From an uncultured Ignavibacteria bacterium (GTDB lineage Bacteria > Bacteroidota > Ignavibacteria > Kapaibacteriales > UBA2268): 64,000 nt of DNA. Position numbers and translations under genes: made by a program. The stretch is from positions 11,716 through 75,715 of the forward strand of contig CAIOZA010000024.1 of NCBI GenBank assembly GCA_903862655.1. Direction: 5' to 3'. Positions 23,137 to 23,602 of this stretch are shown here, piece by piece; within the stretch, counting starts at the first letter, position 1; every line of letters starts with the position of its first letter. The notes below the pieces were generated by a model, which saw only the letters and a list, made by a program, of their open reading frames with translations, was not told where the DNA came from and made no database searches.

Positions 23137-23364
23137 CTATCTGCTCAGTCTCTCGGCTAACCATATTTTGATCACTGATTGACGTGTGACGCCCAATCTT
23201 GAGGCTTCCCAGTCTAACTTAGCGACCATCCATTGGGGCATATCAAGATTGATCCTCTTTGGTGTATGATTAGTTCTGGTTGATGTACTTAAATCAAGAT
23301 CTGAAGTAACATCTTCACCGGAATCAAATTTCCTATCGAATTCACTTGATTTCATATAGTTCAA
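23137..23364 (-). CDS. brnA: BrnA-type ribbon-helix-helix antitoxin
   Basis: 75 aa. SEFDRKFDSGEDVTSDLDLS N-region plus KRINLDMPQWMVAKLDWEASRLGVTRQSVIKIWLAERL RHH core typical of the BrnA/DUF4415 family. Overlaps the brnT 3' end by 23 nt. Confidence 0.65.
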   Translation of the reverse strand: MNYMKSSEFDRKFDSGEDVTSDLDLSTSTRTNHTPKRINLDMPQWMVAKLDWEASRLGVTRQSVIKIWLAERLSR

Positions 23365-23602
23365 TCTCCTCTTTTCTAGATTTTCTAACTGAAATTATTC
23401 TAATATTTGAATCTCTAAATGTGATAACTGCAGACCAGAAATTAGCTTCAATTTTTCCAATCACCAGAAAGCGTGGTTCATCTTCTGTTCTAGCTTCAAT
23501 TTGGAGAAGATTCTGATCATCCCACAACTTTTGTGCTTCTAGAAAATCAATGCCATGTTTTTCAAGGTTATTTCAACTTTTGTTACCATCAAATTCAAAC
23601 AT
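23342..23602 (-). pseudogene. brnT: BrnT (DUF497) toxin gene with in-frame TGA stop at codon 10
   Basis: From ATG at 23602 the frame reads MFEFDGNKS-TGA(23573..23575)-NNLEKHGIDFLEAQKLWDDQNLLQIEARTEDEPRFLVIGKIEANFWSAVITFRDSNIRIISVRKSRKEEIELYEIK. This aligns end to end with the BrnT consensus (MKFEWDENKN..N..KHGVSFEEA…RFLLLG…V…IRIISARKA). ORF track 23342..23527 only picks the post-stop part from a TTG. Confidence 0.65.

Follow-up and report, generated by a model that had tools for sequence, protein, structure and literature searches.

The locus described here raises a simple question: when a toxin gene is interrupted by a stop codon near its start and the antitoxin gene beside it is complete, has the toxin been lost, or does the stop codon mislead? 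We analysed a stretch of 64,000 nucleotides (64 kb, called the window below), whose minus strand carries a brnT toxin gene with an in-frame TGA at codon 10 and, overlapping its 3' end, the cognate antitoxin gene brnA. A preliminary description of this DNA had offered three readings of the TGA, namely a recently inactivated toxin with an intact antitoxin, a sequencing error, and a readthrough or recoding site; we weigh these, together with a shorter toxin and a different genetic code, against the alleles found in related contigs and against the wider BrnT family.

The brnT frame and the brnA gene

The brnT gene, now a pseudogene, occupies 23342..23602 on the minus strand. Read from the ATG at 23602..23600, its frame runs MFEFDGNKS-TGA-NNLEKHGIDFLEAQKLWDD...EIELYEIK-TGA; the natural stop is the TGA at 23344..23342, and there are 86 sense-equivalent codons when codon 10 is counted. 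The premature TGA lies at 23573..23575, after nine sense codons (23576..23602), and is the single interruption in a frame that is otherwise full-length and colinear with its family, as the preliminary description had reported. The alignment to DUF497 that it proposed as a check gives an end-to-end match: the Pfam model BrnT_toxin (PF04365, DUF497) aligns to the translation, with X at codon 10, over profile positions 1-77 of 77 with 87.8 bits (cutoff 34.5). We also built an HMM from 22 homologues of 67-74% identity, leaving out the near-identical alleles, and this model scores the full read at 160.2 bits, residues 11-86 at 142.3 bits and the product of the downstream TTG at 110.8 bits; because the full read outscores residues 11-86, the codons 5' of the TGA still carry the family signal.

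Methionine occurs only at the start of the brnT frame, so there is no in-frame ATG 3' of the TGA from which translation could re-initiate, and the earliest canonical in-frame start past it is the TTG at 23527 (codon 26), the origin of a mechanically called 61-aa ORF (23342..23527, minus strand); both observations had been made before and hold. An uninterrupted ORF of about 85-90 codons yielding the whole BrnT domain is missing at this locus owing to the TGA at codon 10, and the locus should therefore be classed as a null allele or pseudogene of brnT with an intact brnA. A tblastn search of the 64-kb window found no second copy of either BrnT or BrnA.

The brnA gene (23137..23355, minus strand) runs from an ATG at 23355 to a TAG at 23137, encodes 72 aa, and overlaps the 3' end of brnT by 14 nt (23342..23355). 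That it is intact, as previously claimed, is evident from the match of its product to the NCBIfam model BrnA (NF047399), which covers profile positions 1-70 of 70 with 117.9 bits (cutoff 60); the score against Pfam PF12441 (CopG_antitoxin), 27.1 bits, is slightly below the cutoff of 28. The exact protein is found on nine contigs, and the gene differs from that of a related contig, L003, at seven positions, five of them synonymous. Among the 80 subfamily loci surveyed below, brnA overlaps brnT by 11-23 nt in 79, an arrangement that suggests translational coupling. The window's brnA also has a Shine-Dalgarno-like GAGGAG of its own at 23366..23371 (minus strand), 10 nt 5' of the ATG, in a sequence where such motifs precede 31% of starts as against a background of 9%; this motif would permit translation of brnA uncoupled from that of brnT, making continued BrnA synthesis plausible.

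The 98-nt leader or promoter region of the operon (23603..23700, minus strand) is nearly invariant in related loci and contains an imperfect inverted repeat of 24 nt (23624-23647 / 23657-23680, minus strand; 71% complementary, 9-nt spacer), a candidate operator for BrnA or BrnTA in view of the autoregulation by BrnA described in Brucella (PMC10714953; PMC5086665). A scan for sigma-70 promoters and terminators gave no more hits than shuffled sequences and is uninformative for the host phylum. In two related contigs, L001 and L003, brnTA is 94-99% identical to the window, the leader differs at 9-16 of its 98 positions, mostly at the distal end, and the 3' end of the Fib_succ_major gene upstream differs at 28 of 60 positions. 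A conserved brnTA beside a divergent Fib_succ_major gene would reflect either very fast divergence of the surface protein or exchange of the toxin-antitoxin cassette between lineages.

Sister alleles and predicted loss of toxin activity

A protein search returned more than 6000 BrnT relatives, the best three of which (P0001-P0003) are intact 86-aa proteins that are 94-97% identical to the window's translation and have Arg at position 10. At the DNA level, codon 10 is AGA in L001, L002 and L003 and TGA in the window and in L004, L005 and L011. Because the closest relatives carry AGA, the brnT lesion is one A>T transversion, at 23575 on the coding strand, and the comparison of orthologous loci that had been proposed earlier thus finds the relatives uninterrupted.

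Where all four sequences (the window and L001-L003) can be aligned, a total of 484 columns, only three changes are specific to the window, all of them within 30 nt on the minus strand. The first, A>G at 23604..23604, falls at position -2 of the brnT ATG, where G is rare (4 of the 45 starts in the window). The second, GAT>GGT at 23586..23586 (D6G), aligns with Glu7 of Brucella BrnT and is of uncertain significance, the column being variable in the subfamily. The third is the AGA>TGA change at 23575 itself (R10stop in brnT codon 10). The whole of brnA and the remaining 230 nt at the 3' end of brnT match the consensus of the intact alleles, and no other disabling lesion is present. Near-identical intact alleles with AGA and the lack of further lesions together support the first of the earlier readings, in which the toxin was inactivated recently and its cognate antitoxin left intact.

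The differences among these alleles are unevenly placed. Between the window and L002, an intact allele of the same locus (695 nt aligned), all eight lie in one 122-nt patch, 23483-23604, in the 5' half of brnT, a clustering with a probability of about 2e-5 if sites were uniform. Contig ends fall in the same patch: of the contigs L006-L011, five begin at window positions 23476-23530 and one stops at 23515. Assembly seems to have broken within the patch, whether from co-occurring variants or from recombination in the N-terminal half of the toxin. In the otherwise intact allele at L003:168-428 (protein P0003), K15I alters the catalytic Lys-His pair of the conserved Lys-His-Gly motif, alongside L13F and L21R, so that this small clade may contain another toxin allele whose attenuation arose independently. 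These are hints of recurrent toxin attenuation or of recombination, drawn from very few sequences.

To place codon 10 in a wider frame we surveyed the BrnT subfamily at the DNA level, independently of gene calls, in 80 genomic loci from many phyla (L012-L091, from genome_contigs). An in-frame stop in the BrnT ORF occurs in none of the 80 loci, nor in any of 25 aligned homologues. BrnT is 85-90 aa long in all 80, with the same MFEFD/FEWD beginning in relatives; the preliminary description had reserved the possibility that orthologues would turn out to have a naturally shorter BrnT, and they do not. The codon-10 column holds 12 different residues across the 80 loci, and Trp is never among them. 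The subfamily is 62-71% identical across Zetaproteobacteria, Cyanobacteria, Desulfobacterales, Chloroflexota, Latescibacterota and Paceibacterota, a similarity that, as judged from the sequences, would indicate unusually strong conservation of the cassette, frequent horizontal transfer of it, or both.

Residues of known function were mapped by alignment to Brucella BrnT (3U97), to which similarity is low (profile E = 0.041); a closer solved relative of the window's BrnT is 7VD7 (E = 2e-9). The RNase activity of Brucella BrnT depends on Asp6, Glu7, Lys9, Arg41 and Glu78 according to the summary of Heaton et al. 2012 in PMC5086665, and in a BrnT-like toxin both toxicity and RNase activity are influenced by a Lys-His pair, the mutation of whose Lys, the equivalent of K15, reduces them in part (PMC10714953). 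In the window, Asp6, Glu7 and Lys9 correspond to D5, G6 (Asp in the sister alleles) and K8, all upstream of the TGA; Lys16/His17 correspond to K15/H16, between the TGA and the TTG; and Arg41 and Glu78 correspond to R44 and E79, downstream of the TGA. The family's conserved residues are thus found at the aligned positions (D5, K8, K15, H16, R44 and E79), the exception being the Glu7 column, which varies in the subfamily. Since the residues that are needed flank the TGA on both sides, and since a restart at the TTG would lose K15 and H16, no restart product is expected to be active as a toxin; the window's brnT is predicted to make no active toxin, barring trace readthrough of the UGA.

The reading that best accounts for these observations, to which we give a probability of about 0.86, is that a chromosomal type II brnTA operon of an uncultivated FCB-group bacterium has suffered a genuine loss of toxin function, recent in evolutionary terms. 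The Arg codon 10 of brnT (AGA) became TGA through one A>T transversion, and ribosomes starting at the ATG at 23602 would terminate after a nine-residue peptide. The brnA gene would presumably still be expressed from the conserved operon promoter, by way of its own GAGGAG, and BrnA would then act as an autorepressor and as a free, or "orphan", antitoxin. The sequences themselves show the lesion and its ancestral state, its occurrence in several independent assemblies, an intact allele coexisting at the same locus, the standard code and the lack of recoding signals; we infer the loss of toxicity, the continued expression of brnA and any residual role of BrnA.

Alternative readings of the TGA

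The TGA allele is present in more assemblies than the intact allele, and its frame carries no second lesion; this recurrence and the lesion-free remainder fit recent decay, but would also be compatible with toleration of the allele or even with selection in its favour. Taken furthest, the TGA allele would be a selected, attenuated state in which a leaky UGA-A passes a trickle of full-length BrnT (or none) and BrnA is kept as a free anti-addiction antitoxin against circulating intact brnTA, a proposal that we consider unlikely. If it were true, cells with BrnA would be immune to the intact brnTA cassette of the same communities, and the N-terminal clustering of allele differences, together with the K15I allele, would reflect recurrent selection to disarm the toxin.

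That the TGA is leaky or recoded and yields a small but physiologically meaningful dose of BrnT, so that the allele is attenuated in expression and not dead, appears quite improbable. UGA is the leakiest stop codon, and an A on its 3' side weakens termination and favours readthrough in E. coli; the codon-10 column is highly variable, the remaining frame is pristine and keeps all mapped catalytic residues apart from the variable position 6, and several assemblies contain the allele. A pristine frame is to be expected of a very recent mutation too, however, and TGA is an ordinary stop in the host, where it also terminates brnT itself. The 111-nt stretch that spans the TGA and continues past it has no better fold than shuffled sequences (z = +0.74), with no hairpin and no SECIS-like structure among the predicted folds, and an Rfam scan of the site at a permissive E-value returned only sub-threshold chance hits of eukaryotic snoRNA type. 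The orthologues carry Arg, not Cys/Sec or Trp, and a stop at or near this column is found in none of the 80 loci.

Selenocysteine insertion and other programmed UGA recoding were rejected on the lack of a stem-loop, the AGA (Arg, not Cys) of the orthologues and the lack of stops in the 80 loci. The readthrough or recoding site that the preliminary description had allowed for therefore has no support in its programmed form, given the standard code in addition to these points. What survives of it is low-level, unprogrammed readthrough of the UGA, which could give traces of full-length BrnT with Trp at the variable position 10.

The possibility that an error in sequencing or assembly produced the TGA and that brnT is intact in the real genome starts from a one-base difference from the intact alleles and from the consensus errors to which metagenome contigs are liable. 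Exact-protein look-ups with BrnA and the neighbouring Fib_succ_major protein brought up additional contigs of this locus, and three of them, L004, L005 and L011, are 100% identical to the window over 486-1018 nt, with the same TGA and the other two window-specific changes. These three come from different ENA assemblies with two contig-naming or assembler styles. On L004 and L005 the gene callers left the brnT interval empty, and the gene calls of one further contig show the same gap. Because the same TGA stands in three other independently assembled contigs, sequencing error, the second of the earlier readings, is excluded for practical purposes, and a miscall is very improbable indeed. L002 has flanks identical to those of the window, yet carries the intact AGA allele. 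The TGA is a real allele, and intact and TGA alleles both exist in nature. The samples behind the sister contigs may be related and belong to a single project, in which case the contigs would be independent as assemblies and perhaps not as populations. A 29-nt invariant stretch of brnT has no exact DNA match in genome_contigs or in the JGI metagenome_contigs; the window's lineage is absent from the GTDB species representatives and the JGI contigs.

A naturally shorter BrnT, translated from a start 3' of the TGA as the 61-aa TTG ORF and functional as a toxin, deserves equally little credence. This ORF passes the Pfam threshold by itself (54 bits against PF04365, cutoff 34.5), but the relatives are uniformly longer and share the beginning that it omits. 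Its product is without D5, K8, K15 and H16, the equivalents of the Asp6, Lys9 and Lys-His residues tied by mutagenesis to RNase activity and toxicity, and there is no Shine-Dalgarno motif 5' of the TTG. The exact 61-aa protein is absent from a collection of 15 billion proteins, and no gene for it is called on the sister contigs.

TGA is an ordinary stop in the window's genome, which uses the standard genetic code. Under table 11, 45 stop-to-stop ORFs of at least 150 codons cover about 57 of the 64 kb (about 88% coding) and reach 1086 aa with no in-frame TGA. TGA ends eight of these 45 ORFs, among them ORF 3..1229, whose stop at 1227-1229 had been cited earlier as a genuine one and is so; the Fib_succ_major gene directly upstream of brnTA (23701..24600) ends in a TGA one residue past the end of its Pfam model, and the terminal TGA of brnT is conserved in relatives. 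The 64-kb window contains no tRNA genes, hence no suppressor or Sec tRNA nearby. The least probable proposal of all, that host or gene uses a code in which TGA is sense (table 4 or 25), can point to an AT-rich genome (37.5% GC) and to several TGA-ended ORFs with a TAA or TAG 0-22 codons downstream, and it fails on the coding density and ORF lengths just given, on the end of the Fib_succ_major domain model at its TGA, on the codon 10 of close relatives, which is AGA and not TGG or GGN, and on a lineage outside the known recoded clades. That lineage is an uncultivated FCB-group bacterium (Bacteroidota/Ignavibacteriota-like), since several large window proteins carry T9SS sorting tails, which point to the FCB group, and since the nearest named relatives of the fused CcoN-CcoO oxidase are from a "Bacteroidetes/Chlorobi group bacterium" (77%) and from Ignavibacteriaceae (about 72%).

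Several other features of the neighbourhood are worth recording. The Fib_succ_major gene ends in tandem stops, TGA then TAA (23698-23703, minus strand), and most TGA-terminated ORFs in the window are followed by a TAA or TAG 0-22 codons downstream, which makes readthrough of the UGA less costly. A 75-aa YgiT-type zinc-finger protein encoded two genes upstream of brnTA (24640-24867, minus strand) resembles the N-terminal domain of the MqsA antitoxin (TIGR03831, 47 bits); it has no HTH domain and no adjoining toxin gene, and may be another orphan antitoxin-like gene. A respiratory cluster (40232-49901, minus strand) encodes a 1043-aa molybdopterin/4Fe-4S protein similar to ActB of alternative complex III and the fused CcoN-CcoO cbb3 oxidase (717 aa), and 55147-63163 encodes several large T9SS-tailed proteins with lectin and IgGFc-binding domains.

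Comparison with known systems

For annotation, the recent loss-of-function reading means that the locus should be entered as a nonsense allele of brnT, hence a pseudogene, with an intact brnA after it, and neither as a 61-aa "BrnT" nor as a recoding site. Its significance beyond correct annotation is small, the phenomenon itself being already well documented; it is nonetheless a natural snapshot of the first step in the decay of a toxin-antitoxin pair, one substitution with both alleles extant, and could offer a modest test of the idea that disarming of the toxin precedes loss of the antitoxin.

By sequence the window locus belongs to the BrnTA type II family. As in Brucella BrnTA, in the outline given by PMC5086665 and PMC10714953, a PF04365 toxin comes first in the operon with an RHH-type BrnA downstream, the conserved D, K, K-H, R and E are found (window D5, K8, K15/H16, R44 and E79), and the AT-rich leader with its inverted repeat is consistent with autoregulation by BrnA; unlike the Brucella system, the window copy is interrupted at codon 10 by a stop, with Gly at the position equivalent to Glu7. 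The likeness is much closer to the intact sister alleles (P0001-P0003; L001-L003), which share 94-97% amino acid identity, the same leader, an overlapping brnA and an upstream Fib_succ_major gene, and which differ in being uninterrupted, with AGA at codon 10, GAT (Asp) at codon 6 and A at -2. With selenocysteine and programmed readthrough sites the locus has in common an in-frame UGA inside an otherwise conserved frame; unlike them, it has no SECIS hairpin, its orthologues have Arg, the stop is conserved nowhere among family members, and codon 10 falls in a variable column of no functional importance.

Loss of the toxin with retention of the antitoxin is an ordinary and well-documented outcome of toxin-antitoxin decay. 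A survey of Klebsiella pneumoniae found orphan antitoxins to be abundant, suggested degrading toxin-antitoxin pairs among their possible sources, and proposed for them roles in anti-addiction or cross-neutralisation, or none beyond that of a mere remnant (PMC7192599). The window locus resembles the degrading loci of that survey in that the antitoxin has kept its original surroundings and the toxin has ceased to be a valid gene; unlike them, it is at the earliest stage of decay, a single nonsense substitution, with the intact allele still present in related metagenomes.
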